IMG/VR virus record: IMGVR_UViG_2778261384_000002
Direction: 5' to 3' (one strand)
Source: a virus
Taxonomy: Duplodnaviria > Heunggongvirae > Uroviricota > Caudoviricetes
DNA: 32,626 nucleotides
The position numbers and the translations under genes were made by a program. Of the stretch, positions 950 through 21,964 are shown piece after piece. The notes below the pieces were generated by a model that did no database searches, had not been told where the DNA came from, and saw only the letters and a program-made list of their open reading frames with translations. Each line of letters starts with the position of its first letter. Position 1 is the first letter of the stretch.

Positions 950-2596
950 TTAGCGTTCTATGATGGGGGATAGCTGCGCATGTAGCGTCGCAGCATTGAC
1001 AGATTCAGCCGTAAACAATGCGGCGGTTGTAGGTGGGCTACTGGGGCCGCACTGGCAGTTATGAATGTGCGCAGCGTCAGCCGCTGCCAGCCGTTGAACA
1101 ACCATCATCAGGTTATCCAACAGCACAAAAATATTTATTGCGTCCGTGCCGGTCCAACTCTTTCCGGCTTCAAAATGCTGCAATTCTTTAGCCACGCTAC
1201 GCCGCAGCTTGCCGACGACTTCAACCAACTGCCTGCCAACAGCGTGCCGGTGATCTCCTCCTGCTCCGGTGTCAATATCACCTGCGGTCATCTGCTCAAT
1301 AGCGCCCAGGGTATGCAGGATATGCGACCCGCCAACCTGTAACACATCATCACCCGTTACGCTGGCGCGACGCTCCACGACGTCCGTCTGTTCTTCATCC
1401 ACCGTCAACTTTCGCACCCGCGCAACTTCGGTCAGTGCCTGATCGGTTTCGCGGCTGACATCGCCGCGACTGTTTGTCTTATGCAGAACGCCCGCGCGTG
1501 ACTGCTGCACCTGCTCACCCGCAGCAACAGCAGGCAGCGTCAACCCCTGCGCCATTACCTGGCGGATGTGTGGGCGGTCCGGGCGTGCCTCACTGAATCC
1601 CAGTTCGACCAGTGTTCCCGGCGCGGGGTACTGCATCAGGCCGCTATCGCTTCCGCCAAACCCAACCGGCAACGGCACAGCCTGATAAACGGGGACCGTT
1701 TGATCGGGTTTCCCGTCTTCATCCAGTAACTGAACGTTGACGGCAAAGCGCGGACGGAATGGATCTGATATGTCGCTATGGCCGGTCGTGTCGCTGATAG
1801 CCTCAACGCGACCAATTTTCGGCAGGTGTAAACCTGCGGCCAGTTCCGGAAACTCCTTTTCAGCCTGGCGGCGGAATTGCGATTTTTGCGCCTCGCGGCC
1901 TTTGCTGTCTGTTACCGCCCATTTGACTGACATCTGGTCATCAGTCAGATCGATACGCTTAACCCGTTGGCCGTTAACGACAGCGCCAGGCCGCAGTGAC
2001 GGCACGCACACGATCCGCATAGTGTCGCCGCCAGTCTGCTGATCAGAAAATCCGGACGGTATATCAACGGGCAATGACGGCCATCGGGATTCCTGCCAAC
2101 TACCAACAAATACAACACCTTCGGGCAACTGCTGCCAGATATAATCCGGGATAGAAAAAGCGCGCCCCAGGTTGTTTAGCAACTGATAGCCGCTGCCTGA
2201 ATGGGTAAAGTTAGGGATCGGCGTATCGGTGTATGTCTGCCCGTCTGGCAGCGCAAACGCCAGCCCGCACTGTTCAGTAACCCAGTTACAGACATCCCGT
2301 AATGTTGGGTGCTGTATTGAACAGGGCATAGGGCGCGCCAGTATTCCCGTTAATTCACGCACCAGGATACGCTGCCAGCCCTTTTCCGCCTGCTGACTAC
2401 GCTCAACAATACCAGTGAACCAGCGCAGCATTTTTCCGGAATACCCCAGATCCAGCGCGACCATTTTTCCCTGCAAGTTTTCATCACCGGGGACCGTGAC
2501 AAAACCCAACCCAGCGCCGGACAACTCCAGCGCCAGATGTACATTAACCGGCGTTACCGTCTGCGAACCGATATAAAAACGGCTTGTTATCTTCAT
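950..2596 (-). CDS. Phage tail/baseplate protein, possibly gpD-like (late control D / hub family)
   Basis: 548 aa, last gene of the tail operon, start overlaps the upstream gene; N-terminal segment ALDLGYSGKMLRWFTGIVE resembles the P2 gpD N-terminal motif as recalled. Family assignment is tentative. Confidence 0.4.
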   Translation of the reverse strand: MKITSRFYIGSQTVTPVNVHLALELSGAGLGFVTVPGDENLQGKMVALDLGYSGKMLRWFTGIVERSQQAEKGWQRILVRELTGILARPMPCSIQHPTLRDVCNWVTEQCGLAFALPDGQTYTDTPIPNFTHSGSGYQLLNNLGRAFSIPDYIWQQLPEGVVFVGSWQESRWPSLPVDIPSGFSDQQTGGDTMRIVCVPSLRPGAVVNGQRVKRIDLTDDQMSVKWAVTDSKGREAQKSQFRRQAEKEFPELAAGLHLPKIGRVEAISDTTGHSDISDPFRPRFAVNVQLLDEDGKPDQTVPVYQAVPLPVGFGGSDSGLMQYPAPGTLVELGFSEARPDRPHIRQVMAQGLTLPAVAAGEQVQQSRAGVLHKTNSRGDVSRETDQALTEVARVRKLTVDEEQTDVVERRASVTGDDVLQVGGSHILHTLGAIEQMTAGDIDTGAGGDHRHAVGRQLVEVVGKLRRSVAKELQHFEAGKSWTGTDAINIFVLLDNLMMVVQRLAAADAAHIHNCQCGPSSPPTTAALFTAESVNAATLHAQLSPIIER

Positions 2597-3228
2597 TTGT
2601 CTTTGTCCGTTTTGACAGCTGATCCGGCTGTACCGGTTGACGTCGTATCCGCTTTTGATTCAGACGGCGACGGGGCCAGCCAGTCATCAATTTTTTTCCA
2701 GAATTTATCTGATGACGACATTTCAGTGTCTGGCGGTGTATTTTCCCCGGAAGATGCGCCCGGTGTCGTAATGCCTGGCGTCGTCTGCGAAACAACCCCG
2801 CCCAGTTTTGAAAATACATTGGCCTCTTTTTTCTCCGGTACACTGCTGTACTCCCGCAGAGTGAACGACACGTTCCACGCCCGCAGTGAATCCGATTCCG
2901 GCGCGCTCAGACGCCCGGTGAATGTCGCCTGGCGCATGTTGATCGCCGTGGCGGTGAGATTGGAAACTCGGTAAACCGTCTGCTTTCCGCCCTCGTCCAC
3001 CCCTTCCGCCAGTTCAAAAATACGCGTAAGGAATTCAACATTACGAAACGGGATCACGCCGCTGACATTTAATTCCTTTGCTTTTATCCCGCCCTCACTT
3101 TTCTGTGTTCCCGACGTCTGGCCAGACTGATCTTTGTCTTTGAACGGCAAAACAGCCTCCACTTTCAGATTCAGCATTTTTACCGTTTCGCCGTTCAGCG
3201 TTAAAATTACTGGGTGTCTCGTGCTCAT
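2593..3228 (-). CDS. Tail-operon protein of unknown function
   Basis: 211 aa; start and stop overlap the flanking ORFs (translational coupling); Ser/Thr/Pro-rich C-terminus; no motif recognised. Confidence 0.4.
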   Translation of the reverse strand: MSTRHPVILTLNGETVKMLNLKVEAVLPFKDKDQSGQTSGTQKSEGGIKAKELNVSGVIPFRNVEFLTRIFELAEGVDEGGKQTVYRVSNLTATAINMRQATFTGRLSAPESDSLRAWNVSFTLREYSSVPEKKEANVFSKLGGVVSQTTPGITTPGASSGENTPPDTEMSSSDKFWKKIDDWLAPSPSESKADTTSTGTAGSAVKTDKDK

Positions 3229-4094
3229 AGGCAGCCCTTCAAAAACGACAGATCCGCGCCAGTGAACAGCACGACAGCAGTAAAAATAAAAGAATGGCCG
3301 GGCGGGCTACTGGATTCCAACGCAGACGCCAGTGACGCACCGCCACCGCTTCCCTTCCAGGACCAGACCTGCACGGCGGTTTCGTTCAGCTTGTCAAAGT
3401 CACCAGCCAGATCAGAAACAGCCTTTTCACGCAGCTTTACCAGTTCCGCCAATGTATCGACCGGCGCGCGGGTTTTATATGCGGCCAGCATCGCCATTTC
3501 TGACAACAGCAGGCGGCGCGATTCACGGTGATTTTTTTCGATCAGGTCGCCAGACTCCGGCCACGCCGGATAGGTCAGCGCGCCGGGGCGTTGCATTTTC
3601 TGGGATTCCTTGCCAGCGTGAGCGCGGGCGGTGTTCAGTGCCTGCGTAAATCCGGGGGCGGGCAAGGTGTCACAGACTTTTGTCAGCTTGCTAATGAAGT
3701 CCCCAATCTGACCAGCGCAAACCAGTAAACAAACGGCGTCACCGCCTGCGCCCATTCTCAGATCTGCACCATCGCGCAATTTTTCGGCCAGCCTTTTGAC
3801 GGCGTTCGGCGGGCTAAGATAAGTGCCGCTTTCTTCCTCCTTACCCGCGCCAAACGTCCAGTTATGAACGGCGATTTGCTGCCCGTTCGTTGTCAGTTTA
3901 TCCAGTTCGACGCGCAGATCGGCTACCTGATCCGCCTGCCCCGCCAATTCTGGCTGCGGCCACTGCGCCCGCGATTCCAGCGCGCGCAATGCGTTAATGC
4001 CAGGGGATGACAGCGACGACAACGCACCGTTTAACGTGTCATGCGGCGTTTTCACTTCATCCGGCAGTTTTAACTGTCCATTACTCCACGCCAT
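3225..4094 (-). CDS. Tail-operon hypothetical protein (about 290 aa)
   Basis: Track ORF 3225..4187 begins with TTG; the internal ATG at 4094 has a GGAG Shine-Dalgarno about 13 nt upstream. Hydrophobic C-terminus. No family recognised. Confidence 0.35.
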   Translation of the reverse strand: MAWSNGQLKLPDEVKTPHDTLNGALSSLSSPGINALRALESRAQWPQPELAGQADQVADLRVELDKLTTNGQQIAVHNWTFGAGKEEESGTYLSPPNAVKRLAEKLRDGADLRMGAGGDAVCLLVCAGQIGDFISKLTKVCDTLPAPGFTQALNTARAHAGKESQKMQRPGALTYPAWPESGDLIEKNHRESRRLLLSEMAMLAAYKTRAPVDTLAELVKLREKAVSDLAGDFDKLNETAVQVWSWKGSGGGASLASALESSSPPGHSFIFTAVVLFTGADLSFLKGCL

Positions 4095-4567
4095 GAATAA
4101 CCCCGCTCCCATTCGCTGGAAACCAGCGCGTGTAACTGGCCGGGCGAATAACGCCAGGCATCCCGTAACTGCATAAATTCGGCACAAAACTCGCTACAAA
4201 ACCACTTTTCAGGATTCCCACGGCAAAACAGCAAAAAGCCGATAACCCCGGCGATGTCGTATTTTTTCCCCGCGTACAGGCGGTAAAAACTGGCGATTTC
4301 CTGCGGGCTGGCGCTGATTTCGATCAAGTCCCATTTGTCAGAGGGTAAAGGCATTGTTTTAGCCCTGACCCCGCCATCACGGAACGATGACGAATAGCAG
4401 GTAAAATCCGTGCCGACGTCGTAGCACTGCGGCCCCACGGCGATTTCACAATGTGAATACGGACTGCGGGTAACAAGGCGTGTCACCCAGTCCGCCAGGC
4501 GGGCCAACCCTTTGTGTTCGCTGCGCCCACGATAAAACGCAATAAAAACCGCGTTCATGGTTGCCAC
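4070..4567 (-). CDS. Hypothetical protein with permuted papain-like (peptidase C92 / YiiX-like) motifs
   Basis: 165 aa; His-containing motif SPYSHCEIAV followed later by WFCSEFCAEF resembles the His-then-Cys order of C92/YiiX-type permuted papain-fold proteins; overlaps the tail fibre assembly gene stop by 13 nt. Confidence 0.35.
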   Translation of the reverse strand: MATMNAVFIAFYRGRSEHKGLARLADWVTRLVTRSPYSHCEIAVGPQCYDVGTDFTCYSSSFRDGGVRAKTMPLPSDKWDLIEISASPQEIASFYRLYAGKKYDIAGVIGFLLFCRGNPEKWFCSEFCAEFMQLRDAWRYSPGQLHALVSSEWERGYSWRGVMDS

Positions 4568-5157
4568 CCCTGGGACCAGTCGTAAGCCTCAACGGCGGCA
4601 ATATCGTCCAGGGCATTCACTGCCGCAATATGCGCCTGCGCGACGGCAAATAACCGCATATCATGTTCAATGGTCACAACCTCAAACTGCGCGGCGATCG
4701 CGTTGGTCAGTTCAATCATGCCGTTATTTTTGGTCTGCCACATAAGGCCAGACGGAAGCGCGCCCGCCTGCCCCATTTTTGCCAGCGTCATTTGCTGAAT
4801 GCGGCTGTCTGCGTCGCTGTGAAAATGATGGCCGTTAATTTCAACGTAATCAGCCGTCAACGTGTCGCGGTGTTGTTTGATTGACTGATTAACCGTTATT
4901 TTTGCGTGTTCCAGCGCGGCGCTGAATGCATCGGTGTCGTAAACCCATTTATCACCATTCAGGCGATAAAACTCACCTGGGGGAGGCGTTGTTACCAGTT
5001 TCCCAACGGCTGGATTTACCCAACAATCGCGATCATGGTAGCGCCACTGCGTGTCAGTGACGGGCATAATTGTTTCGGGTAAAACAATATTGAATTGATC
5101 GGTATCCAGCCACTGTAGAACTTTTAAATCAATAGGATTGTAATAAGCGTATTTCAT
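4555..5157 (-). CDS. Tail fibre assembly chaperone
   Basis: Start taken at internal ATG (MKYAYYNPIDLKV...) 4 nt after the tail fibre stop, with GGTGG Shine-Dalgarno; N-terminal motif and position directly downstream of the tail fibre gene are typical of Tfa chaperones. Confidence 0.6.
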   Translation of the reverse strand: MKYAYYNPIDLKVLQWLDTDQFNIVLPETIMPVTDTQWRYHDRDCWVNPAVGKLVTTPPPGEFYRLNGDKWVYDTDAFSAALEHAKITVNQSIKQHRDTLTADYVEINGHHFHSDADSRIQQMTLAKMGQAGALPSGLMWQTKNNGMIELTNAIAAQFEVVTIEHDMRLFAVAQAHIAAVNALDDIAAVEAYDWSQGWQP

Positions 5158-5161
5158 TGAG

Positions 5162-7255
5162 TTACCACCAAATTCTGACAAAACCTGGCGAACCATTGCC
5201 GCCATTACTTTTATTCAGCCCACTACAACTACCGCCAGAACCGCCCGCGCCGTATCCTGTCCCGTTACTACAACCTGATGGAATTCCTTTCCCACCAAGC
5301 CCGAATGGGCTATTTTCGCCGTCGCCAGCGGTCCATATTGTTGATTTAAGGCCATTGAATTCAGCCGGATCCCAAACGCCACTGTTCAGTAATCCACTGC
5401 CGCCCGCGGCTGAAACACCTCCGAAACTAGAAGAACCGCCAGCACCACCAACAATCAGCGCCGTGCCTGATGCAGGGATCGCACCAGCACCGCCAGCACC
5501 TACAGCAACAGAAACAGCCGCCCCCGGCGAAACGGCGACTATTGCAATAGCAATTTGAGCGGCGCGCCCTCCTGGTGCTGGCTTGTAGTAATTGGTGGAC
5601 GATGGGGCCGCGCTGCCGCCAGCACCGCCCCCGATCATTTCCACGAAAACTTTCTTTACCCCGGCAGGGACAGTAAATGTCCCGTTTGCAGTAAACAGGG
5701 CAAAATTACCGAAATAGCGCAAATCGGCGTTTGCCGTCGTGATAAAGTCCGGCGCGCCGGTAATATCGGACCAGGAGTGTTTATGGTTGGCAGCGGCTGC
5801 GCTTACGTCGCTGTACGTCAGCGTAATATCCGCTGACAGTGCCTTATTGTTCACCTTGCGCGTTGTTGGCACGGCGTTTACGTCGCTGTACGTCAGCGCA
5901 ATGTCCGCTGACAGCGCCTTATTGTTCACCTTGCGCGTTGTCGGCACGGCGTTTACGTCGCTGTATGTCAGCGTAATATCCGCTGACAGCGCCTTATTGT
6001 TCACCTTGCGCGTTGTCGGCACAGCGTTTACGTCGCTGTACGTCAGCGTGATGTCCGCTGACAGCGCCTTATCGTTCACCTTGCGCGTTGTTGGCACGGC
6101 ATTTACGTCGCTGTACGTCAGCGCAATGTCCGCTGACAGCGCCTTATTGTTCACCTTGCGCGTTGTCGGCACGGCGTTTACGTCGCTGTATGTCAGCGTA
6201 ATATCCGCTGACAGCGCCTTATTATTCACCTTGCGCGTATCCTGCACCGCGTGAACAATGCGTGGATCATCTGCTGCGGCAACCTGCCCCGCCAATTGCC
6301 CTACGTTGCACACCGCTGCGCCACCCAGCCCCAGATTTACGCGCGACTTGCCTTTATCATCCAAATCAGCCAAGTTTTGCGCCCGGCGCAAGTAGCGCTT
6401 ATCCAGATCGTCACTGTTACGCACTGGACGTAAATCAGTGACTGCCCCATCTGCGGCAATTTCAGCAATTTTAAATACATAGTGGGTTTTCCCCGCAGCA
6501 TCCGAATATTCAGCCAGATCGCCCGACGTAATGACGCAGATATCAGTGACCGGCACGCAGGCAGTCATTACAGACCCCTGCCAGACGGTATCCAGCCAGA
6601 CGGCGGCGGGTTTAGTCCCGACCGCGACATCCTGCGCGGCTTCGTTCGCCAATCGCAAACCGGCCACATAACCCAACCCCGGCAGGCAGCTATATTTCAC
6701 CCCGCTACGTTGAACCAGCCACCCATCATCAAAAAACAGCGCACTGCCGTAATGATCGATATTCAGTAAACGCTGATAATCATCAATACCCGTCAGACGG
6801 GCGGTAAAATCGATCTGCCACGTTTCGGCAGGCGTATTAATCCCTGTCTTTTCTGCAGCACCGTTAAATTCAATCAAAAACGAGCGAGTAAACGCGTTTC
6901 CCTGTTCCGTCGCCGTCGTTTTCACCTTTTCCAGCGCCGGGACCGTTGTCACCATCGCTAAAAGGCCCGTTTTTTTGCAAATCAGGCCGATCCAGTTAAA
7001 CGAAAAATCGCCGACGTTTGTTCCCAGGGTAAACGAGTACGCTACCGTGTTTTTGTTAACCACGCCCGCAGCGTTGACGGGTTCGCGGTAAACAATTTGC
7101 GCAGCATCCGGCAGACCGGCGTCACGGTTTATCACCGCACCCGGATCAAGGCCGGGCACATTAGCCAAAACAAATTCATCCAGCGAAATGTCGCCCGGCG
7201 TCAGCAGATCAGCGGCCTGCCACTGCTCAAATGCCGTCGTGATAATTGTTGCCAT
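5162..7255 (-). CDS. Tail fibre protein with tandem fibre repeats and glycine-rich C-terminal domain
   Basis: 697 aa; six tandem 26-aa repeats (TRKVNNKALSADITLTYSDVNAVPT) typical of phage tail-fibre repeat units; Gly-rich C-terminus; follows the gpI-like gene as in P2 (H after I). Confidence 0.8.
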   Translation of the reverse strand: MATIITTAFEQWQAADLLTPGDISLDEFVLANVPGLDPGAVINRDAGLPDAAQIVYREPVNAAGVVNKNTVAYSFTLGTNVGDFSFNWIGLICKKTGLLAMVTTVPALEKVKTTATEQGNAFTRSFLIEFNGAAEKTGINTPAETWQIDFTARLTGIDDYQRLLNIDHYGSALFFDDGWLVQRSGVKYSCLPGLGYVAGLRLANEAAQDVAVGTKPAAVWLDTVWQGSVMTACVPVTDICVITSGDLAEYSDAAGKTHYVFKIAEIAADGAVTDLRPVRNSDDLDKRYLRRAQNLADLDDKGKSRVNLGLGGAAVCNVGQLAGQVAAADDPRIVHAVQDTRKVNNKALSADITLTYSDVNAVPTTRKVNNKALSADIALTYSDVNAVPTTRKVNDKALSADITLTYSDVNAVPTTRKVNNKALSADITLTYSDVNAVPTTRKVNNKALSADIALTYSDVNAVPTTRKVNNKALSADITLTYSDVSAAAANHKHSWSDITGAPDFITTANADLRYFGNFALFTANGTFTVPAGVKKVFVEMIGGGAGGSAAPSSTNYYKPAPGGRAAQIAIAIVAVSPGAAVSVAVGAGGAGAIPASGTALIVGGAGGSSSFGGVSAAGGSGLLNSGVWDPAEFNGLKSTIWTAGDGENSPFGLGGKGIPSGCSNGTGYGAGGSGGSCSGLNKSNGGNGSPGFVRIWW
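5795..6250. repeat. Tandem direct repeat, about 78 bp x 6, in-frame inside the tail fibre gene
   Basis: Unit cgtcgctgtacgtcagcgtaatatccgctgacag...ttgcgcgttgtcggcacggcgtttacgt recurs with 78-bp period and a few point differences. Coordinates approximate. Confidence 0.8.
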
Positions 7256-7261: not shown

Positions 7262-7795
7262 TTATTCCCTGATAAGTGACGCGGCGTGACACACATAGTC
7301 ATTGTGTACGCTGCCCGCCTGAATATTGATCGGCGTGGATGTTAACGACTGGAAGCGATAGCGGCGACAGGTGCGCCCGTACTGCCGGACGATTTCACGC
7401 AGCAGATCACCGTGTTCAGAGATCTGCCGGTCGGTCAAATCCAACAAAATGACGTCCCAGTCAATACCGTCTACACGCTCATTTATCCCGACAAAACCTA
7501 TTTCCAGCCGTTCAAATATCCGGGCAAAACCCGCCGTACTGCCTGCATCCTGCGCATTAATGAACGCGTAATTCACGCGGCGACGGAACAGATCCAGCGG
7601 CTCCGCGTTTAAGCGGGTGACGTCACGCTGCCAGGCCAGCAAAAAGAGGATCGTTTCGTTACAGGTCAGCGCATCAAACTGCTGCAACGGCCAGCGCAGC
7701 CACGCATCAAGCCAAAGCCAGAAACGTTTGCACGCTGCCGCCAGCTTTTGCGGTTCGCCTTTGTTCATCCAGCTGGGCAATTTAATGTTCATCAT
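7262..7795 (-). CDS. Baseplate/tail protein, P2 gpI-like
   Basis: Start taken at ATG overlapping the gpJ-like stop (ATGA), giving about 177 aa; motifs LAWQRDV...RRRVNYAFINAQDAGSTAGFARIFERLEIGF resemble P2 gpI as recalled. Confidence 0.55.
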   Translation of the reverse strand: MMNIKLPSWMNKGEPQKLAAACKRFWLWLDAWLRWPLQQFDALTCNETILFLLAWQRDVTRLNAEPLDLFRRRVNYAFINAQDAGSTAGFARIFERLEIGFVGINERVDGIDWDVILLDLTDRQISEHGDLLREIVRQYGRTCRRYRFQSLTSTPINIQAGSVHNDYVCHAASLIRE

Positions 7796-8976
7796 GCGCT
7801 GCCCCATTTCACGCTTAATGACCGCAGGCGCGGAATATTCAGTTCACTGACGATGTCATCAAGAGAAAATTCAACAGACGACAGGGCGGGAAACGCCTCG
7901 TGAATTTCTTCACCCAACTTAGAAAAGCCAAACCGCGACCAGGGCCACGTTTTGGTAACGTCATACGCTGAATTCTCACGAAACGCGCAGCGCACCATGT
8001 TTTCAACGACCCCCGGCAGATCAGCACGTTCAGCATCGGTAATCATCGCGTTATCCGGGATGTGAAGCGTCACTTCCAGTTCATGAAAGGTTTCCGGCAT
8101 AGGGAAACATTGCATATCGTCGCCGTGTCCGTGGTTTCCCTGCCCCATCACGTAATCATTTACGGCTGCAATAAACGGATCACTGATCACACCTGCATCC
8201 AGCAATAAATACGCGTTAGCTGTTCCCGGTCCGCGCGGGGCGTCATGTAAAAAGAAAATGCGAGCGGTGCTCAATCCGGCCACACTGGCGATCGCCGAGC
8301 GATACACGGCGTCAATGTGATAGTTACCCACGACGTTAAACTGGTTACGGATACGCGGGCGAAATTCGTCGTCAGACTCACGATCAGCGCCTGGCTTCGT
8401 CAGCCAGTCATCGCCGGTCGTCACTTCCGCAACTCCCGCCACCGCGACGGGTAAAACATGGTAATAACCGGGCGCAAGGTTCCAGGCACTGCCCGCAGTA
8501 TCAGCCGTACAGGCGATCGATAGCTGCGCAATACCTGCGGGGATCATCGTCGTCGCATCCACAATCAGGCGATAAACTTCACCGTTAACGCGTTCTGTCT
8601 GAATGACAGTACCTGCCGGAATTGTCACATTTTCATCAGCACTGGTTTTAATAAACGTCACTGCACCCTGGGCGCACGTCGCCGCCTTACGTTCCAGACG
8701 GACCGCCCACGCCAGCAGGTCAAGCCACGTCCCGATCGCCGTAGCAACAAAAAGGTTAGTCAGAACCACATCTGCCAGCACATCACGCAGCCACAGCACC
8801 GGTTTAGTGACAATGGCGGAAATCAGACGCCAGAACGGCGACATTAACGACGTGTTAGTGACCAGCCCTTCATCATCGGCGACAGTCTGGAACTTCGCCT
8901 GAATTTCCTTTTCCGTACCCGGCAGGCCCGCGTCATCCAACAGGGCGCGGTAATCGGGTTTAGGTGTATCACTCAT
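7792..8976 (-). CDS. Baseplate J-like protein
   Basis: About 394 aa from ATG at 8976 (MSDTPKPDY), overlapping the upstream ORF by 8 nt; size and position between W-like and I-like genes fit the baseplate J family. Confidence 0.6.
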   Translation of the reverse strand: MSDTPKPDYRALLDDAGLPGTEKEIQAKFQTVADDEGLVTNTSLMSPFWRLISAIVTKPVLWLRDVLADVVLTNLFVATAIGTWLDLLAWAVRLERKAATCAQGAVTFIKTSADENVTIPAGTVIQTERVNGEVYRLIVDATTMIPAGIAQLSIACTADTAGSAWNLAPGYYHVLPVAVAGVAEVTTGDDWLTKPGADRESDDEFRPRIRNQFNVVGNYHIDAVYRSAIASVAGLSTARIFFLHDAPRGPGTANAYLLLDAGVISDPFIAAVNDYVMGQGNHGHGDDMQCFPMPETFHELEVTLHIPDNAMITDAERADLPGVVENMVRCAFRENSAYDVTKTWPWSRFGFSKLGEEIHEAFPALSSVEFSLDDIVSELNIPRLRSLSVKWGSA

Positions 8977-9304
8977 AAACAACCTCAACTGGATCAATCA
9001 GTCCGAATTCATAGGTTTCTGCCGTCACAATGACGCGGCCTGCCGCTTCCTCATACACGCGCACCGTTCCGGGGATTAGGCGGTTATCCGTTTCCACCAT
9101 CAGAATAATTTGCAGATAAATATCATTGCGCATGACAGCGGAACGCTGGCCGATAAGGTGCGTTGCCAGATTGCTTTCAATGATGCCGTGTTTAATGTCC
9201 TGACCAATGCTGACACGGTTGTCACAAAGCGTTGGTTCACGTCCGGTATTTAAAAGAAAATCGCCGTTAACAATTTTCAGATCGATATACAGTTTTTCAG
9301 TCAT
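8969..9304 (-). CDS. Small baseplate protein, gpW/gp25-like (DUF2590-type)
   Basis: 111 aa directly downstream of the tape measure gene and upstream of gpJ-like; size and position fit a gpW/gp25-type wedge protein. Tentative. Confidence 0.45.
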   Translation of the reverse strand: MTEKLYIDLKIVNGDFLLNTGREPTLCDNRVSIGQDIKHGIIESNLATHLIGQRSAVMRNDIYLQIILMVETDNRLIPGTVRVYEEAAGRVIVTAETYEFGLIDPVEVVYE

Positions 9305-13310: not shown

Positions 13311-14446
13311 GCCTCATTCTGTACAGACAGATCAACCATAATATTTACGCCAATAACCAGCGGGCATTCAGTCGGGCGCGCCTGTACGTAAATATTTACA
13401 TGCGTTGAATCAATCCATGTAATAACAATATCACCCTCTTTTGGTGAATAGACTTCACCGGGGAATGACACGCCGTTAATAGTGGTACTTTTCGCCATCG
13501 TGCGCAGCGGTTTAGCAAACTGCATTTGATGATATTCAACGCTGGACGGCGTGGAATTTAACGAGCGGTTACCAATATTGCGAATAGCCAGTAAACGCAC
13601 CTGGCGCGCCACTTTATCGACAATGCGCAAAATACGGATCGATTGATAGTCGCCTCCTTTTGTCGCCAATAACGGGCCATCATTCCAGTAAATACCCTCA
13701 AAATCCGCATACGTGACCGGAACAGAATAACGCGCAGCGTCCAGCGCCTGCACAATATCCGCTGTTACCGTCTCTCCGTTTTTGTCTTTAGTTGCGTTGC
13801 CAACAGACACGAGCGATCCAGTTAAAACGCGCGCGGGAGTATCTGCAATTGTCACCAGCCGATTACATAAACGTCCAGCAATTACACCTGGCAAATTCTC
13901 ATAAAGACGGGGAACCAGCATAACGCCATCAGCAACTAACCCCGTTTGCCATTGCGTTAAAGCGGCGGAATATTGTTGCCATGTCATGTCACCGCCAACA
14001 GGATTTTTAACGGGTAAAATAAACCATGTCCAACGACCGTATGTCGCGATTAATTCCTGGCGGAGAGCGGCAGCTTCTTTGGCGCTTTTAGTTAGAGAAA
14101 AACCGGACTCTTCTTCATTCCAGTCAGCAAAATCCTCTAACAATACAACGCCCTCAAAACTTCCGTATTTTTGGCATTTTTTAACAGCATCCTGCCACTT
14201 TTCGTCAGAATCCATAAAATAAACCGATGCCGACCAATTTTGCCCCGCATTCATCATGGCGGCGCGAATATCGTCACCCGCTGAACTTGTAATTTTGTCT
14301 AAATCAGTTTGAGTATTTAGCGTGTAAAAACCTGGGGTGTAATTTTCAAGCGGCGCATAGCTGACGAACAATAAATGCCGCTCTATTTCATTTACAGTGC
14401 CCTGCGCCAGATCAATCTGATTAACCTGCACTTGTGGGTAAGTCAT
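13307..14446 (-). CDS. Tail sheath protein (FI-like, DUF2586-type)
   Basis: 379 aa; position upstream of the tube gene and size fit a contractile-tail sheath; ATG overlaps the upstream gene stop. Confidence 0.55.
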   Translation of the reverse strand: MTYPQVQVNQIDLAQGTVNEIERHLLFVSYAPLENYTPGFYTLNTQTDLDKITSSAGDDIRAAMMNAGQNWSASVYFMDSDEKWQDAVKKCQKYGSFEGVVLLEDFADWNEEESGFSLTKSAKEAAALRQELIATYGRWTWFILPVKNPVGGDMTWQQYSAALTQWQTGLVADGVMLVPRLYENLPGVIAGRLCNRLVTIADTPARVLTGSLVSVGNATKDKNGETVTADIVQALDAARYSVPVTYADFEGIYWNDGPLLATKGGDYQSIRILRIVDKVARQVRLLAIRNIGNRSLNSTPSSVEYHQMQFAKPLRTMAKSTTINGVSFPGEVYSPKEGDIVITWIDSTHVNIYVQARPTECPLVIGVNIMVDLSVQNEA

Positions 14447-15075
14447 GGTTTTCTCACCTTTTTTAATTCCTGCGCTAATATCCGCGCGTTATGTTTTGAA
14501 CGGGTATCAAGCCAGGAGCGCGGCGGCGCGGGGATGTCCCATTCTTTTTTCGCGGCTTCTTCTTTCAGAATGCGAATAATCAGCCCCGCCTGCCCCTGCT
14601 TAATGTTCTGCGTAATCCATTTAATTGACGGCGTTTTCTTCTTTTTGCCTTGCTTAACCGTGTAACCCAGCTGCCGCAACTTGACCGCCTGCCCCCTCGT
14701 GACCGGCGCATCATATGCAGGCTGACCGCGCTGGCGCTTGAGCTGCGCAGCCGTCACATGTTCCGGCTTACCGTAGTGATGGCGCGCTGCCATATCGCTA
14801 TGAACGGGGTTTTTCCAGTGCAACTTCACATCATCAGAAGTCGGCGTAATGCTCATTAGCGCAGGAATGCGACGCATCATTTTTTTACTGCCGCGCTGGC
14901 GCTTTTCCCATCCGCGCCCGTCCGGTGTCCGCTGCGCCCTGGCGTTCTGCTGCGCTTCCCGCTTAATCCGCCTGGCGGCATTCTGCAAAACCTGCCGCCG
15001 CTTTGCCGGTGGCAGTTCCAGCGCCGAAAGCCTGATTAGCGCCTCACGCTGGCCGCGCAGGTCGGTTCTAATCAC
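14443..15075 (-). CDS. Tail completion / virion morphogenesis protein, P2 gpS-like
   Basis: Segment RRIKREAQQNARAQRTPDGRGWEKRQRG resembles the gpS-family N-terminal motif as recalled. Track ORF begins with GTG at 15186 inside the upstream gene; GTG at 15075 has a GGGGTGG Shine-Dalgarno and is used here. Confidence 0.5.
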   Translation of the reverse strand: MIRTDLRGQREALIRLSALELPPAKRRQVLQNAARRIKREAQQNARAQRTPDGRGWEKRQRGSKKMMRRIPALMSITPTSDDVKLHWKNPVHSDMAARHHYGKPEHVTAAQLKRQRGQPAYDAPVTRGQAVKLRQLGYTVKQGKKKKTPSIKWITQNIKQGQAGLIIRILKEEAAKKEWDIPAPPRSWLDTRSKHNARILAQELKKVRKP

Positions 15076-15547
15076 CGGCCACCCCAACAGACAGATCGTA
15101 ATGTTCTGCCGTCCAGATCTCCGGCTCAGACAATGACCAGCGCCTGCCGTCCCACTCAATAGCCCCCTGCGCGTCTTCGCGAACACACAGCGGGCAACTG
15201 AATTTAATCGTGATTTCCACGTCGGCGATTTCCTCCGCCGACTCAGCGATCACCAGTGACGGATCGGGCAACTCCAGCTCATCCCGTCGCGTGTCACAAT
15301 CTGCCAGCCAGCCAGTAATCAGGCAGAACAGCAGCGCAGGCGGATAAACACGAAACGGGTAATTTTCAAATGACAGCACCGCGTCAAACTGCAATTGCGC
15401 TATTTCGCTATACAGACCCATGTCGCGCGGGGCGTAAATTAGCGCGGCGTTTTCCATCCATGAATCAAGGCAGGCGGACACCTTCGGCGGCAACTTGCTG
15501 ATCAGATATTCAGTCAACGCATTAAGCTGCGTGCGTGTCGGCGTCAT
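15068..15547 (-). CDS. Tail completion protein, P2 gpR-like
   Basis: 159 aa; ATGA overlap with the gpL stop; hydrophobic/aromatic pattern loosely matches P2 gpR as recalled. Confidence 0.45.
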   Translation of the reverse strand: MTPTRTQLNALTEYLISKLPPKVSACLDSWMENAALIYAPRDMGLYSEIAQLQFDAVLSFENYPFRVYPPALLFCLITGWLADCDTRRDELELPDPSLVIAESAEEIADVEITIKFSCPLCVREDAQGAIEWDGRRWSLSEPEIWTAEHYDLSVGVAGD

Positions 15548-15996
15548 AACAACCTCACCGTGGCGCGGGCATAGCCCATAATCTGGCGGATAACCTGCGC
15601 AGCTTCACCGCGTAAGCCGTCCGCCGTTTCCTGCGATTCCGCGCCGGGGTGCGTTTCACGACGTCCCACGGTGGCAAATTCCGGCATTAAATCGGCTTTC
15701 GCCCTGGCAAAAACAGCCTTTTTGTAAGACTCAGTCAGCGCGTTAGCCCCTTCACACGACGGCCCCGGAACATCTGCCGCAGAGGAATACCCCTGGCCGT
15801 GTTGAATATCGGTCCAGGTATCCAGATCACGGTTTACGCTGTCAATTGCCGCAAGTAGCGCCGCGATAACCGTCGCATTGGCGATACTGGCGGGGATCTG
15901 GCGGCGTTCCTCAAATTCTCCGGCGTTAATATCCGGCCAGAACTCCACGTTTTTGATCACCCGGTCCTGGTAGTTCGCCGTTTTGCCGGAAAACAT
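15544..15996 (-). CDS. Head completion/stabilisation protein, P2 gpL-like
   Basis: 150 aa directly downstream of the gpM-like gene with overlapping stop and start; size and order fit P2 L. Confidence 0.7.
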   Translation of the reverse strand: MFSGKTANYQDRVIKNVEFWPDINAGEFEERRQIPASIANATVIAALLAAIDSVNRDLDTWTDIQHGQGYSSAADVPGPSCEGANALTESYKKAVFARAKADLMPEFATVGRRETHPGAESQETADGLRGEAAQVIRQIMGYARATVRLL

Positions 15997-16808
15997 TAAG
16001 CGCCCTCAGTTTCAGAAGTCGCGGGCTGACCGGCGTCCACGGCGTGATCGGCGTTTTCTTCGCCTACACCCTCAGCCGCGCCCGCGCCGCGTGGCGGAGT
16101 CGTTTCAAGTTTGCGCAGACGTGCCGCGATACGCCCACGCAGGGAAGTAACCCCCGCGTTTTTGTATAGCGTGCCTGCCGCTTCCAGATATAAATCGGCC
16201 TGGCGCAATGCTGCCGGATCATCAAGATTTGCGGGATTAATGCGCCCATCAGCACCGCGCAGGATCAGGAAACCGGCCAGTTTGTAATATTTCGCCGTTA
16301 GCTGTTCGTTGAGCTTCCAGCGCTCAGTCACATTCTTAAAGGTTTGAGAGAAAAACGGCTCAATACTGCGGCCCGCTTCAAACTCAATTTCTGACCAGTC
16401 CAGCACTTCATCAGCCACCGTTCCGGGCAGATTGTTACGGAAACCTTCCGGTGACTCCTGACCCTGCTCGATCGCAATATCAGCCCAGTTCAGCGCCTGT
16501 TCAAACTTTCTGATGTCCATCAGCCAGACAATGCACCAGACGAAAACCGGATTTTGATAGATGTCGCCCGCTTCCAGGTACTTTTCAGCCCACGGCAACC
16601 AGCGCGGCAGCATAACGTCACGCTTCATTTGAAAGCGTTCTGCGTTGCTATGCAGATCGCGCAGCGTCCCGACATCCTGCCGTAACTGCAAAAGCTGCAC
16701 ATACAAACTACTGTCATCCAGACCAACCGCGCGGGGTGCGGCTTCACCGGTCATAACCTGGCGCGCGCGAATGCTTTCGACGTGGCGCTGAAACGGTGTC
16801 AACGGCAT
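15996..16808 (-). CDS. Terminase endonuclease / small subunit, P2 gpM-like
   Basis: 270 aa between capsid gene N and L; conserved P2 head-operon order O-N-M-L. Confidence 0.75.
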   Translation of the reverse strand: MPLTPFQRHVESIRARQVMTGEAAPRAVGLDDSSLYVQLLQLRQDVGTLRDLHSNAERFQMKRDVMLPRWLPWAEKYLEAGDIYQNPVFVWCIVWLMDIRKFEQALNWADIAIEQGQESPEGFRNNLPGTVADEVLDWSEIEFEAGRSIEPFFSQTFKNVTERWKLNEQLTAKYYKLAGFLILRGADGRINPANLDDPAALRQADLYLEAAGTLYKNAGVTSLRGRIAARLRKLETTPPRGAGAAEGVGEENADHAVDAGQPATSETEGA

Positions 16809-16817: not shown

Positions 16818-17810
16818 TTACTTGATAGTGACTGCGGCTTCATCGATCGCGGCGTACAGCGCGGGAATTTCCAGCGCATAGCCCTGCATACGCCACCAGG
16901 AGGATTCAAACGCCTTACGGTCCCCGACGTGCTTCGCTTCGCGGCGCTGCGTGCCGGTTTGCGTGTAGCAATGCAGGTTTTTAGGGATAGTCACTGCAAT
17001 ACGCTTACCAGGGAAGAAAGGCGGTGTAACGTGGCGACGACCGGCGATAGATTTCAGCATCGGCGTAAACGCGGCTTTTTCGGTCGGCTTATCGGTCTGG
17101 TTTGCCATGCGCTGCTGTTCAGCGGCAATCAGATCAGAACCGGCCAGCACCGTTAATTGTGGATGTTCGCGGAATTGCGCGGGCAGCATCGCGATCACAT
17201 CCAGCGCCGCAGCGTCCAGGGTTAAATAATCCCCGCCAGCGCCGATCGACACGGCTGCGGTGAGAACATGAGAACCGTTGTCGTATTCCTTAGAAATCTG
17301 ATGCCAGCCCTTGTTAACATCTTCGCCGTTCGGGTTCGCCACCGGATCGGTATTTTCGGCAAAACTTTTACCATTAAAGCCGATGCGCAGGATGTCCAGC
17401 GCGAAGGATTCGTTTGCAAACTCAGTGACGAGTTTAAAGAACTCACCAGGCGTCCCGGAATTCGCCCAGACAGCCAAAAGCGCCCACTTCAGGCGCGCGC
17501 AGGAATCCGTTTCGCGCAATTCGTATTCGTTGCCATCAACGCCCAGATCGACACCGAAGCGCCCATCTTTTTTACGTCCAGTTAAAAGTTTAGAAACGCC
17601 AGCTTCAACAACCGCGCCTTTAATCTGGTTAACCGACAGCATAGAAATTTCTTTCAGAAATGCCGTTGAATCCAGCAGTGCTTTACGCAGTTTAATTTCC
17701 TGCGGCTGACTGATAGTGAACATATGCTTTGTGGTGGCGACGCTATACGCTTTCGCAAGCGTCACCGCATATTGGTTAATAAGTTTTTCCGCTTCCGGAG
17801 TAAGAATCAT
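16818..17810 (-). CDS. Major capsid protein, P2 gpN-like
   Basis: 330 aa following the scaffold gene; size and position fit P2 N. Confidence 0.8.
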   Translation of the reverse strand: MILTPEAEKLINQYAVTLAKAYSVATTKHMFTISQPQEIKLRKALLDSTAFLKEISMLSVNQIKGAVVEAGVSKLLTGRKKDGRFGVDLGVDGNEYELRETDSCARLKWALLAVWANSGTPGEFFKLVTEFANESFALDILRIGFNGKSFAENTDPVANPNGEDVNKGWHQISKEYDNGSHVLTAAVSIGAGGDYLTLDAAALDVIAMLPAQFREHPQLTVLAGSDLIAAEQQRMANQTDKPTEKAAFTPMLKSIAGRRHVTPPFFPGKRIAVTIPKNLHCYTQTGTQRREAKHVGDRKAFESSWWRMQGYALEIPALYAAIDEAAVTIK

Positions 17811-17847: not shown

Positions 17848-18693
17848 TTACACCAGATAATCCGGCACGGTCTGCGCGGGTTCGCCGTTCGGCTGTTCCG
17901 TCGTTTCACCAGACAGCGCGGTAAACTTTTGCAGCAACTGATCGACCTTGCCATTAAGTGTGGTGAATTGCTCCACGGTCACGACTTGCGACTGATCACT
18001 TTCCAGACTGTTTTGATTATTTTCAATAACAGTCGTGTTTTGTTTTGCGCTGAATGATTTAATTTCATCTACGGCGGTCCCCATTTTTTCTACAGCGGTA
18101 TTAAACACGCCCATTAATTGCGTGAATTGCTGTTCGTTCATAACGTCTTCTTCCTGATTAATGTCCGGATCGCGCGCGCCCTTTTCAGGTGACTGCGGCG
18201 GACGTGAAAAAATACGGCTGAAAAAAGAATCTTTTTCGGCAACTTCGGTCATCGGTTCACCGCTGCAAAAGCTGATAACATTCGGCGCGCCGGAAAATTC
18301 AAGACGATCGGTCCCCGTACTGGCGGGCAAATCGGTAACAGCAATCCCCGCAAGGTAATGCTTTCCGGTACTGGCGAAATTTTCCAGAATTTCTACGGAT
18401 GGGAATAGCTTTTGCTGATCATCGCGGTTTAACGACATCATCCATTTATTAGGCAGGAAACGCGCGTACAGCTTGATTTTGCCGTTAACCGTTTCACACT
18501 TAACGCTATGAACCGTGCCGAGGTTGTACCATTTTTGATGGCGGTCAACACTTGACGGCCAAATCATAGCGGTATATTCCGCCGCGTTATAAGTTTCCGC
18601 AGCTTCTGTCAGCCATTGTTCTTTTATTTCCCGCCCGTCTACAGTCGGGCCAGCAGTGGCAACGCAAAACCACGCGGTGGGTGTTTGTTTCAT
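17848..18693 (-). CDS. Capsid scaffolding protein, P2 gpO-like
   Basis: 281 aa (P2 gpO about 284 aa); first gene of the minus-strand head operon, divergent from terminase P; acidic coiled-coil C-terminal half. Confidence 0.8.
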   Translation of the reverse strand: MKQTPTAWFCVATAGPTVDGREIKEQWLTEAAETYNAAEYTAMIWPSSVDRHQKWYNLGTVHSVKCETVNGKIKLYARFLPNKWMMSLNRDDQQKLFPSVEILENFASTGKHYLAGIAVTDLPASTGTDRLEFSGAPNVISFCSGEPMTEVAEKDSFFSRIFSRPPQSPEKGARDPDINQEEDVMNEQQFTQLMGVFNTAVEKMGTAVDEIKSFSAKQNTTVIENNQNSLESDQSQVVTVEQFTTLNGKVDQLLQKFTALSGETTEQPNGEPAQTVPDYLV

Positions 18694-18845
18694 AAGTTAC
18701 CCTCATTTCGATAAAGTAAAGTAAAACACCCAGCCGTTTTATTTTCATGCCGTTAATTTCTGACTATTTCGGATATAAACCGTTATCAGAATTAAAGCGA
18801 ATATAGACCGGATACCCAACGTTTTTTAAATGCAAAAATCCCCTT
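18694..18845. promoter_or_regulatory. Divergent late-promoter region between O and P operons
   Basis: 152-bp AT-rich gap between divergently transcribed head operons, equivalent to the P2 P_O/P_P late promoter region. No Ogr-box (TGT-N12-ACA) could be located by eye. Confidence 0.4.
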
Positions 18846-20618
18846 ATGAAATATTCAGACGAATTAAGGGGAATGGCGAAAGCCCTTTATTTAAAGGGAC
18901 TCACCCCGAAAGAAATCGCCGCCCAGTTAAATCTGCCATCTGCGCGGATTATTTATCACTGGGCTGACGTGGGCGAATGGCGCGACCAGATGAAGGTCGT
19001 AAACATTGAAGACGCGATCGCGCGCCGCATTGCCCTGCTGACTGACCGGGAAAAGAAAACACCCGGCGAACTGGACGAACTGGACCGCCTGATCGGCCAT
19101 CACGTCAAACTGCTGACATCCAGAAATAAGCACGCTGAAAGAATGGCGGAAATAGACGCACGCGGACCCAGTGAAACATCGCGCGCAGCAGCCCCGGACG
19201 ACAGCGACGGCAAATCACGCCAGAAGAAAAGGCGCGCGAATGACGTCAGCCACCTGACAGAAGCTGATTTTGAGCGCTTCCTTTCGACACTGTTCGGCTA
19301 TCAGAAACGGCTGCATGAGAATTTAAGCCAGAAGATCCGCAACATACTGAAAAGCCGTCAGATCGGCGCGACATACTATTTTGCGTTTGAAGCGTTCGAA
19401 AACGCGACGCTGACCGGCGACCCGCAAATATTTCTTTCTGCCAGTAAGCGACAATCAGAAGTTTTCCGGTCATACATTGTCAATATCGCGTTGCAGGAAT
19501 TCGGCGTTACGCTGAAAGGCAACCCGATCAAACTGAACACCGCGCACGGCATCGCCGAACTGCATTTTCTGGCGACCAACAGCAACACCGCGCAGTCGAA
19601 TTCCGGTCACGTTTATATTGATGAATATTTCTGGATACCGAAATTTAATCGCCTTAATGACGTTGCGTCAGCGATGGCGACCCATGACAGATGGCGTTTA
19701 ACGTACTTTTCCACGCCGTCCGCTAAAACGCATGAGGCTTACCCGTTCTGGACCGGTGAAACATGGAAAGGCGGCAATAAAAAGCGGCGGGCGGCAGTCT
19801 TCCCGACGTTTGACGAAATGCGCGACGGCGGGCGACTTTGCCCGGATAAACAATGGCGGTACGTCATCACCCTGGAAGATGCGATCGCGGGCGGCTTCAA
19901 TCTGGCCAACATTGACGACTTGCGCGATCGCTACAGTGAAACCGCTTTTGCCATGCTGTTTATGTGCCAGTTTGTGGACGACAAAAACAGCGTGTTCAGG
20001 TTTTCCGACGTGGTGCGCTGCGGTGTGGAAACCAGCAAATGGAAGGATTACCAGCCCGGCAACGCGCACCCATATAACGGGGAGGTGTGGGGCGGGTTCG
20101 ACCCCGCGCGAACCGGCGACAACGCGACATTTGTCATTGTTGCCATTCCATCCACCCTGGCCGAAATGTTCCGCGTTCTGGAAAAGTATCACTGGCGCGG
20201 TTTGTCGTTTCAGTACATGGCGGATCAGATAGAAAAACTATTCCGGCTGTTCAATATGACGTTTATCGGCGTTGACGTGACCGGCATCGGCTACGGCGTG
20301 TTTGAACTGATCCAGAACTTCGCCCGCCGCCAGGCAGTGGCAATCCGCTACAACGTCGAAACGAAAACCCAGCTTGTACTGAAAATGATAGACGTCATCG
20401 AAAACCAGCGGATCGAATGGGACGCCCAGGAAAAGGACATTGCAGCGTCATTTATGAGCGTCAAAAAGGCGACCACGCAGAGCGGCGACAACCTGACGTT
20501 CATTGCAGACCGCAGCGCAGAGCACGGTCACGCCGATGTTTTCTTTGCAATCGCTCACGCGCTCTTTAATGAGCCGTTGAACTGGAAAAATAAACGTAAA
20601 TCAACATGGGCCGTATAA
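18846..20618 (+). CDS. Terminase large (ATPase) subunit, P2 gpP-like
   Basis: 590 aa (P2 gpP is 590 aa); divergent from the O-N-M-L operon and followed by the portal gene with TAAATG overlap. Confidence 0.9.
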   Translation: MKYSDELRGMAKALYLKGLTPKEIAAQLNLPSARIIYHWADVGEWRDQMKVVNIEDAIARRIALLTDREKKTPGELDELDRLIGHHVKLLTSRNKHAERMAEIDARGPSETSRAAAPDDSDGKSRQKKRRANDVSHLTEADFERFLSTLFGYQKRLHENLSQKIRNILKSRQIGATYYFAFEAFENATLTGDPQIFLSASKRQSEVFRSYIVNIALQEFGVTLKGNPIKLNTAHGIAELHFLATNSNTAQSNSGHVYIDEYFWIPKFNRLNDVASAMATHDRWRLTYFSTPSAKTHEAYPFWTGETWKGGNKKRRAAVFPTFDEMRDGGRLCPDKQWRYVITLEDAIAGGFNLANIDDLRDRYSETAFAMLFMCQFVDDKNSVFRFSDVVRCGVETSKWKDYQPGNAHPYNGEVWGGFDPARTGDNATFVIVAIPSTLAEMFRVLEKYHWRGLSFQYMADQIEKLFRLFNMTFIGVDVTGIGYGVFELIQNFARRQAVAIRYNVETKTQLVLKMIDVIENQRIEWDAQEKDIAASFMSVKKATTQSGDNLTFIADRSAEHGHADVFFAIAHALFNEPLNWKNKRKSTWAV

Positions 20619-21647
20619 ATGGCAAAACGTAAAAAGCAACAACCAGCCCCCGCGCCAGCTATTCAAAAACAGATGTCTTTTAGCGTGGAATTCGGCGACG
20701 CCGAGCGCGTGCCGTGCCTGGGTTCATATGATGGCGTAACGGATGAAGGGGACGGCTACTGGACGCCGCCCATTGACCGGGAATCGCTGGCAAAATTGCC
20801 CGACATCGCAACGTACCACGGCGCATGTCTGGGGGCGCGCGCAAAAATGGTCGCTGCGGGTTTTCTGCGCGGCGGCGGTCTGACGCCTGAAACCGCGCTG
20901 GCACTGGCCGTTAATTTCGTGACATTCGGTGATGTCGCGTTGCTGAAAATCCGTAACGGTTTCGGGCAGGTTGTACGCCTTTACCCGCTGCCGTCTGTTT
21001 ATGTGCGGCGTTCCACAGATGGCAAAACAAAATTATTGTTACGCGACGGTGAATATAAAGAGTATGCCGCAAAAGATATTATCTTTATTCGTCAGTATGA
21101 TACGTTGCAGCAGATTTACGGAAAACCGGATTATTTAGGCGGAATCCAGTCGGCGATGTTAAACAGTGACGCGACCATGTTTCGCCGTAAATATTACCGC
21201 AACGGAGCGCACTTAGGTTATATCCTGTACGCGACCGATCCGGACTTATCGCCGGAAATGGAAAAAGAAATTTCAGAAAAGATAGAACAATCAAAAGGTG
21301 CAGGTAATTTCCGCAGTATGTTTATTAACATCCCCAACGGTAAACCGGACGGCGTTAAAATTATCCCAGTGGGTGATGTCGCAACAAAAGACGAATATGT
21401 GAATATTAAGCGCATATCCGCACAGGACCAGTTAACCGCCCATCGTTTCCCGCCCGGCCTTGCGGGCATCATTCCGGATAACGTGGGCGGGCTGGGCGAT
21501 CCGTTAAAAGTCCGAGCCGTATATCAATTAGATGAAGTCTGGCCCATGCAGGCGCTAATTGAGAATGCAATCAATAGTGATTCCGAAATTACCCGCGCAA
21601 TGCAGGTGTTATTCAAAAAACCGAAAGCGATAGAGGATGAAAAATAA
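20619..21647 (+). CDS. Portal protein, P2 gpQ-like
   Basis: 342 aa directly after terminase P; size and order match the P2 P-Q operon. Confidence 0.9.
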   Translation: MAKRKKQQPAPAPAIQKQMSFSVEFGDAERVPCLGSYDGVTDEGDGYWTPPIDRESLAKLPDIATYHGACLGARAKMVAAGFLRGGGLTPETALALAVNFVTFGDVALLKIRNGFGQVVRLYPLPSVYVRRSTDGKTKLLLRDGEYKEYAAKDIIFIRQYDTLQQIYGKPDYLGGIQSAMLNSDATMFRRKYYRNGAHLGYILYATDPDLSPEMEKEISEKIEQSKGAGNFRSMFINIPNGKPDGVKIIPVGDVATKDEYVNIKRISAQDQLTAHRFPPGLAGIIPDNVGGLGDPLKVRAVYQLDEVWPMQALIENAINSDSEITRAMQVLFKKPKAIEDEK

Positions 21648-21964
21648 TGGCTAAACGGTTAAAATATACCCCGTTCAAAAATAGATTAAGGGGAATCAAA
21701 TTGCGCAGCCCGAAAATTATCTGTCCGGAATGCAACGGCAATTCAACGATCAAAAAGACCGTGCGGAAACATCCCCATCTATCAGATGTTTATTGCGCCT
21801 GTAATAACGTTGAGTGCGGTCATACTTTCGTTGTAAATATGACATTTTCCCACACCCTAAGCCCCAGCGCGCTTTCATCAGACCGCGCTATCAAAACGCT
21901 TATCGATATGATGTCACCCGGCCAGCGTCAAATCGCTTTAAACCTTTTACAGCCCAACATGTAA
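21647..21964 (+). CDS. Ogr/Delta-family zinc-finger late transcription activator
   Basis: 105 aa with CPEC...(22 aa)...CACNNVECGHTF, matching the Ogr CxxC-N22-CxxxxC zinc-finger arrangement; start overlaps the portal stop. Confidence 0.7.
   Translation: MAKRLKYTPFKNRLRGIKLRSPKIICPECNGNSTIKKTVRKHPHLSDVYCACNNVECGHTFVVNMTFSHTLSPSALSSDRAIKTLIDMMSPGQRQIALNLLQPNM

Follow-up and report, generated by a model that had tools for sequence, protein, structure and literature searches.

Does a stretch of viral DNA whose head, replication and immunity genes recall phage P2, and whose tail genes follow another order, represent a reshuffled P2 phage or a lineage in which this order is normal? The question is raised by positions 950-21964 of a 32,626-nucleotide stretch (IMG/VR virus record IMGVR_UViG_2778261384_000002, Caudoviricetes), analysed here at its full length and referred to as the window. 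An initial annotation had described it as a distinct peduovirus lineage or a hybrid. The present analysis indicates that the window is very probably a nearly whole, apparently intact 33-kb prophage of a temperate myovirus from the HP1/K139-like branch of Peduoviridae, residing in Escherichia coli (E. coli). Its late genes form two divergent operons, one comprising P, Q and ogr on the plus strand and the other running on the minus strand from O-N-M-L through a hub-spike gene to a terminator at 923-937. Those for head and packaging are true P2 homologues, and the tail is of HP1 type with the hub-spike gene last. An Ogr-type protein would activate both late operons (probably via a single conserved dyad at 18768-18791), and a repressor of P2 C type, lying face to face with a Cox-like gene, would maintain lysogeny.

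Gene functions were taken from PHROG, Pfam and NCBIfam searches and from RefSeq annotation, and amino-acid identities from gene-by-gene tblastn against reference phages. Together, these sources confirm that the late genes originally listed for 950-21964 are present. When the sheath and Ogr-like proteins served as tblastn queries, HP1/K139-type phages alone were retrieved, from Haemophilus, Pasteurella, Vibrio, Aeromonas, Pseudoalteromonas, Cronobacter, Salmonella, Yersinia and Escherichia. From the gene for a 548-amino-acid protein through the Ogr-like gene, the late region is collinear with HP1, K139, Escherichia phage ESSI2_ev239 (ev239) and vB_YenM_324 (YenM324) at 27-80% amino-acid identity, the only exceptions being a DUF4376 open reading frame (ORF) and an ORF of 162 amino acids. 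Annotated maps of HP1 (Hpunavirus), K139 (Longwoodvirus), PV94 (Vulnificusvirus), ev239 (Evevirus) and YenM324 (Tresduoquattuorvirus) show the matching gene order. HP1 and K139 are the prototypes of this order, which reads QP | ONML, R, S, sheath, tube, lysis, chaperone, tape measure, DUF2590, J, I, H, G and orf33-35; they differ from the window in their CI/CII (186-type) repressors, hosts and GC content, with protein identities of 27-58%.

P2 shares with the window the divergent layout of Q, P, O, N, M and L, a gpA rolling-circle initiator, C, Cox-like and Int proteins, an Ogr zinc finger and, as a candidate in the window, a frameshift of the E/E' type. However, the late genes of P2 are divided among four operons, ordered X-lysis-R-S | V-W-J-I-H-G | FI-FII-E-T-U-D-ogr, the P2 cohesive-end (cos) site adjoins Q, and the Ogr sites of P2 read TGT-N12-ACA. 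Among the late genes, only P, Q, O, N, M and L, together with the tape measure and the holin, gave matches to P2 (25-56% amino-acid identity), and none of the tail proteins other than the tape measure had a tblastn match in P2. Because the P2 matches are limited to head genes, tape measure and holin, the tail is, judging from sequence, a separate contractile-tail module of HP1 type and not a shuffled P2 tail; the rearrangement originally proposed for it thus finds no support. Even the head genes have their nearer counterparts in HP1-like phages, at 31-59% identity against 25-41% for P2.

The Ogr-like activator had been described as both relocated and fused to the 3' end of the portal gene. The portal gene stops at TAA 21645-21647, and an overlapping ATG at 21647 (TAATG) opens a 105-amino-acid ORF with an Ogr/Delta-type zinc finger (21647-21964, plus strand; PF04606, 51.1 bits against a cut-off of 26.3). 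A TTG at 21701 is preceded by the Shine-Dalgarno sequence AAGGGG and lies 53 nucleotides past the portal stop, as in ev239, and alignment with homologues makes this TTG the probable true start, which leaves a gap in place of the supposed fusion. An alignment with P2 Ogr among its members shows no variation at the four cysteines of the motif CX2CX22CX4C. The position beside the portal is shared with HP1 (where the gene is unannotated), K139, PV94, ev239 and YenM324; in K139 the ogr homologue is known to sit between the portal and replication endonuclease genes (PMC8537503). An ogr homologue next to the portal is therefore normal in these phages and need not have been moved from a place behind gpD. 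Since the order is already found in described HP1-like genera and in the literature, the terms rearranged, relocated and fused are misleading.

The late region consists of two divergent transcription units, P-Q-ogr on the plus strand and O down to the hub-spike gene on the minus strand. The minus-strand unit covers about 17.7 kb (18693 down to 950), its genes overlap or abut tightly, and it ends at a strong Rho-independent terminator at 923-937 (minus strand; GCCCGCCTGGCGGGC followed by TTTTTT). The plus-strand unit ends at a hairpin terminator with A-run and T-run flanks, perhaps bidirectional, that lies between ogr and a HEPN gene (21965-21990; aaaaaaaccgccgtattggcggtttttta). In the divergent promoter region between O and P, the dyad TTCGGATA-N8-TATCAGAA (18768-18791) is a candidate binding site for the Ogr-like protein; it is kept at the matching position in ev239, YenM324, K139 and HP1, and occurs once in the window against 0.09 occurrences expected by chance. 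The P2 Ogr site TGT-N12-ACA was not enriched in the window (6 observed against 6.85 expected) and was absent from the O/P intergenic region. A sigma-70 promoter scan was uninformative, with fewer sites in the window than in shuffled sequence.

Three structural features of the HP1/K139 lineage are found here, namely a divergent P-Q / O-N-M-L head region, a single long tail operon and an ogr gene between the portal and replication genes. A division between HP1-like and P2-like viruses was drawn in 2009, and the tail genes of the former are generally dissimilar to those of P2 (PMC2771037). The regulatory region departs from the definition of HP1-like phages by a 186/HP1-type CI plus CII (PMC3448106), as no CI or CII homologue was found in the window. 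The window also lacks the arrangement of Peduovirus in the strict sense, in which P2 tail genes lie in four late operons and ogr follows D. Genera are delimited by the international virus taxonomy committee (ICTV) at approximately 70% or more nucleotide identity across the genome. With no megablast match and proteins that are mostly 30-60% identical, the window probably falls outside Evevirus, Tresduoquattuorvirus, Hpunavirus and Longwoodvirus. The initial annotation had allowed that a described genus with exactly this order and high identity would make the arrangement routine; the exact order does occur in described genera, but at low identity (27-80% between proteins, and no megablast match).

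The closest relatives by protein are ev239 and YenM324, in which the late order is identical from hub-spike to ogr. Identities with the window are 46-47% for the sheath, 59% for J, 59% for P, 76-80% for the endolysin and 55-58% for the Ogr-like protein, and ev239 likewise has a P2 C-type repressor (51%). Both differ from the window in having Rz-like spanins and in lacking the 162-amino-acid ORF, the Dam, ParE-like and Fil early genes and the HEPN cargo, while ev239 has a primase-type replication protein instead of gpA. Neither matches the window at the nucleotide level. Prophages of E. coli and Yersinia that pair a P2-type regulatory region with HP1/K139-type structural genes were described by Nilsson et al. 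in 2011 (PMC3448106). On sequence grounds, the window fits that description, with a repressor 44% identical to P2 C, an integrase 47% identical to P2 Int, and virion genes of HP1 type. The modular pairing of P2-type immunity and integration with structural genes of HP1 type is old and already on record, and is neither a recent nor a unique hybrid.

In strain S1-KEN-03-A, the prophage is inserted between yeaE and mipA, at the mipA terminator, and is bracketed by 24-nucleotide direct attachment (att) repeats, AAAACAGGGCGTGACGCCCT(T/G)TTT, that lie 33,036 bp apart (L001 12800 and 45836) and correspond to a hairpin immediately downstream of mipA. The window starts about 230 nucleotides inside attL and ends at the stop codon of int, about 160 nucleotides before attR. 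Whereas HP1 integrates in a transfer RNA (tRNA) gene (PMC3448106), the phage in the window occupies an intergenic terminator; a tRNA scan found no tRNA gene in the window, and integration is thus not into a tRNA gene. A segment 99.9% identical to the late region 950-21964 was found in six of 5,426 complete E. coli genomes, and two further genomes hold more diverged relatives. Carriers of the prophage include strains S1-KEN-03-A, 99RCEF and ZF8-1, and a full 33-kb copy spans about 4836829-4869888 of NZ_CP145698.1. Copies that are 99.9-100% identical occur in strains from human, frigatebird, chicken and dog with differing genome sizes, which suggests recent horizontal spread. Megablast of the 21-kb late region against 50,697 INPHARED phage records returned no nucleotide match, and outside a few E. 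coli sequences the hub-spike homologues are at most 50% identical. The phage probably represents an undescribed species, or genus, of Peduoviridae.

There are two other potential explanations for this locus. It might be a recent and unique hybrid, a P2 phage into which a foreign tail module was swapped and whose ogr was moved; the regulatory proteins are indeed nearest to P2 (C 44%, Int 47%), the tail genes are without P2 homologues, and the fibre-distal end varies among the closest E. coli relatives (the H7 match begins at query position 4919). Yet five described genera, all diverged from the window to a similar degree, show the gene order of the whole late region, head genes and position of ogr included, no junction at which similarity changes was detected inside 950-21964, and the head genes, as noted, are those of the HP1-like phages more than of P2. 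A C-type switch joined to an HP1-type virion is also present in ev239 and had been reported by 2011 (PMC3448106), so that a recent hybrid origin is very improbable. Of the two possibilities raised initially, the distinct lineage stands, as one that is already well described, and the hybrid reading is largely refuted. Alternatively, the window might hold a defective or domesticated element, such as a cryptic prophage or a tailocin. It is rare (6-8 of the 5,426 genomes), no matching isolate was found among the 50,697 phage records, and a spanin gene went undetected. Against this, the ORFs for head, packaging, tail, lysis, replication, switch and integration functions are all intact, att repeats are present, near-identical copies in strains from four kinds of host suggest recent horizontal spread, and perfect spacers with correct flanking motifs are found in the clustered regularly interspaced short palindromic repeat (CRISPR) arrays of many E. 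coli strains. A defective element is accordingly regarded as quite improbable.

It is also important to note several points that weigh against an intact HP1/K139-like prophage as described here. No Rz/Rz1-type spanin was found beside the endolysin (12162-12549), where ev239, YenM324 and HP1 have one. The match of the Cox-like protein is weak and spans only the C-terminal half of its 139-amino-acid ORF. The model of the hub-spike protein has a predicted local distance difference test score (pLDDT) of 65.5, exceeding 80 only in the N-terminal 230 or so residues, and its overall confidence is moderate. Lastly, conservation is the sole basis for the cos site, the function of the dyad and the frameshift.

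The head genes on the minus strand are L (15544-15996), M (15996-16808), N (16818-17810) and O (17848-18693), which matched phrog_71, phrog_74, phrog_70 and phrog_73 and are 25-35% identical to their P2 counterparts, compared to 31-52% for HP1-like phages. On the plus strand, the large terminase subunit P (18846-20618) and the portal Q (20619-21647) matched phrog_5909, phrog_3746 and phrog_68, and their P2 counterparts are 41% and 37% identical, respectively. Tail genes begin with the R-like (15068-15547) and S-like (14443-15075) completion or terminator proteins (phrog_26, phrog_65 and TIGR01635 tail_comp_S, the only NCBIfam match obtained from a search with ten tail proteins). The sheath (13307-14446; phrog_907, E 1.8e-117; DUF2586 type according to RefSeq) is 37-48% identical to those of HP1-like phages and had no tblastn match in P2, and the tube follows (12843-13304; phrog_1182, 51-60%). 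Next in the operon are the lysis genes, a holin (12536-12838; phrog_175, 56% identical to P2 gpY) and an M15-peptidase endolysin (12211-12549; endolysin PHROGs, 76-80% to ev239 and YenM324). A 78-amino-acid ORF embedded in the endolysin gene was considered as a spanin and rejected, as it has no lipobox.

The tail assembly chaperone (11901-12161) is followed by a DUF6890 ORF (11719-11859). Sequence and frame analysis places a slippery A_AAA_AAA near the 3' end of the chaperone ORF, followed by the GC hairpin GCCCGCgtgcGGGC, and the -1 frame runs into the DUF6890 ORF, making a chaperone-DUF6890 fusion by programmed -1 frameshift, analogous to P2 E/E', a candidate. DUF6890 is conserved between chaperone and tape measure in all four HP1-like phages compared; RefSeq treats it as a separate 46-amino-acid protein, and the homologous ORF is unannotated in HP1, K139 and YenM324. 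Further along the minus strand are the tape measure (9301-11715; phrog_28, 26% to P2 gpT), a DUF2590 protein in the gpW position (8969-9304; Pfam, 128 bits), a wedge protein of the baseplate J/gp47 family (7792-8976; phrog_6, 40-59%) and a gpI-like baseplate protein (7262-7795; phrog_1228, 48-55%). The 697-amino-acid tail fibre, an analogue of gpH (5162-7255; tail-fibre PHROGs), has an N-terminal part conserved at 40-56% in HP1-like phages and a shaft with about eight tandem repeats of 75 nucleotides (25 amino acids) at approximately 5724-6323. The match with the closest E. coli relative, strain 40EC, ends near window position 5868, such that relatives are not alike in the distal fibre or in the baseplate genes downstream of it.

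Beyond the fibre lie five ORFs where the initial annotation had counted four genes. A DUF4376 protein resembling tail-fibre assembly proteins occupies the gpG position (4555-5157; phrog_2837, phrog_1807), and the extra 162-amino-acid ORF (4070-4558; phrog_1128, E 1.7e-52) had no match in five reference phages and is absent from HP1, K139, ev239 and YenM324. A 289-amino-acid homologue of HP1 orf33 and K139 orf37, probably a baseplate protein, comes next (3225-4094; phrog_1677, E 1e-59; 27-33% identity, syntenic), followed by a 211-amino-acid baseplate complex protein of the HP1 ORF34 family (2593-3228; PF25759, 180.7 bits; homologues 41-53% identical). The last late gene (950-2596, minus strand) encodes the 548-amino-acid homologue of HP1 orf35 and K139 orf39. 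Thin-profile hhalign against P2 proteins revealed no similarity of gpD, gpV or gpU to the orf35/orf34 families, and none of the hub-spike, orf34-like, orf33-like or sheath proteins had a match in searches of PDB sequences. The hub assignment was settled by a fold search after sequence searches came up empty; by its modelled fold, the protein is the baseplate hub-spike, functionally equivalent to P2 gpD plus gpV, and its taking on this job would be the reason that the window is without a separate D or V gene. No relevant literature was found on baseplate work with HP1 orf34/orf35 or on the DUF2586 sheath.

At the left end of the window, a GC-rich motif at 780-814 (GCCGCGGGCGTGCGGGTGAGCGCGGTTTTCGTCCC) is a candidate cos core, flanked by TTTTTTCAG/CTGAAAAA repeats at approximately 650-770. 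When the record ends of PV94 or of K139 are joined, the motif aligns over the junction; for PV94, the cohesive ends are known from experimental mapping (PMC3986222). A similar motif occupies the equivalent place in ev239, downstream of the last tail gene. The HP1 cos adjoins the phage attachment site attP (PMC2771037), and that of K139 is likewise near attP. Because alignment places the motif over the genome ends of PV94 and K139, cos is probably beside the att end, in the manner of HP1, rather than beside the portal as in P2. The core and the TTTTTTCAG/CTGAAAAA motifs are common to the genome ends of PV94, K139 and HP1, and the TTTTTTCAG element is also seen in P2. Between attL and the candidate cos, two small plus-strand cargo ORFs were identified, one DUF4177-like (1-237; weak Pfam match, 63% identical to HP1 orf3) and one YidD-like (237-452; Pfam YidD, 66.8 bits, 50% identical to HP1 orf2). 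In HP1, this pair lies within the lysogeny operon between cI and int, whereas here it lies at the opposite end of the prophage.

The gpA, C/Cox and int genes named in the initial annotation are real but lie outside 950-21964, at 23442-32626. The replication endonuclease of gpA type (23442-25931, minus strand; phrog_91, E 7e-226) is 31% identical to P2 A. The lysis-lysogeny switch (29375-30156) consists of the Cox-like ORF on the minus strand (29375-29794; phrog_575, E 7.5e-9) facing an 89-amino-acid helix-turn-helix repressor of P2 C type on the plus strand (29887-30156; phrog_147), and a tyrosine integrase ends the window (31634-32626, plus strand). In the early region are an ORF at 27585-27806 (minus strand) that matched a ParE-like toxin in Pfam (62.7 bits), with no obvious annotated antitoxin alongside, and a cell-division inhibitor of the 186 Fil family at 28670-28900.

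Defence hotspots have been reported in P2-like and K139-like phages (PMC9122126), and both cargo positions of the window coincide with them. The first holds a HEPN (RiboL-PSP) gene of 35% GC (22007-22786, minus strand; PF18735, 29.2 bits), upstream of gpA with the ogr terminator on one side and a Ner/SfsB-like gene on the other, a position that corresponds to the P2 hotspot between gpA and portal (old/tin). The second (30199-31069, plus strand) holds two unassigned ORFs of 149 and 144 amino acids between the C-like repressor and int, where the K139-type hotspot is located and where K139 carries glo (PMC9122126), with only a marginal PbeC match. PADLOC applied to the cargo genes returned an orphan Dam-type methylase and that PbeC match only and had no model for the HEPN gene, which may thus be an uncharacterised anti-phage gene.

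Type I-E CRISPR spacers with 100% matches to the window were found in roughly 200 of the 5,426 complete E. coli genomes, compared to the 6-8 that carry the prophage. Approximately 183 genomes match the late region only through CRISPR-annotated sequence, and in 18 more the matched site falls within the Dam gene. The ten spacers examined, drawn from nine arrays, were all 100% identical to the window, with protospacers at 1394-1425, 2349-2380, 6366-6397, 8425-8456, 11794-11825, 12024-12055, 17277-17309, 20253-20284, 20703-20734 and 26717-26748. Eight of the ten have the protospacer adjacent motif (PAM) AAG or ATG and one has ACG; the remaining spacer was apparently inserted in reverse, as an AAG PAM flanks its reverse complement. 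Strain 2014C-3097 has two spacers against this phage in a single array. No relevant literature was found on E. coli spacers against P2-like prophages. A tentative and on balance unlikely proposal is that E. coli type I-E immunity has, now or in the past, had a major natural target in this rare lineage of HP1-like coliphages, which may be a new genus (at least 11 perfectly matched protospacers, mostly with AAG or ATG PAMs), and that its HEPN gene is an uncharacterised single-gene anti-phage system.

The HP1/K139-type gene order is the standard layout of a lineage known since 1996-2002, and for this reason the order itself matters little. The value of the analysis lies in a correct classification, an HP1/K139-type virion with a P2-type switch, and in gains for annotation: the hub-spike assignment, a candidate frameshift of E/E' type, a candidate cos and a candidate late-activator site. 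In addition, the spacer matches suggest that natural encounters with this rare phage have been frequent enough to mark E. coli arrays clearly, and they could help studies of where E. coli spacers come from, which is largely unexplained.

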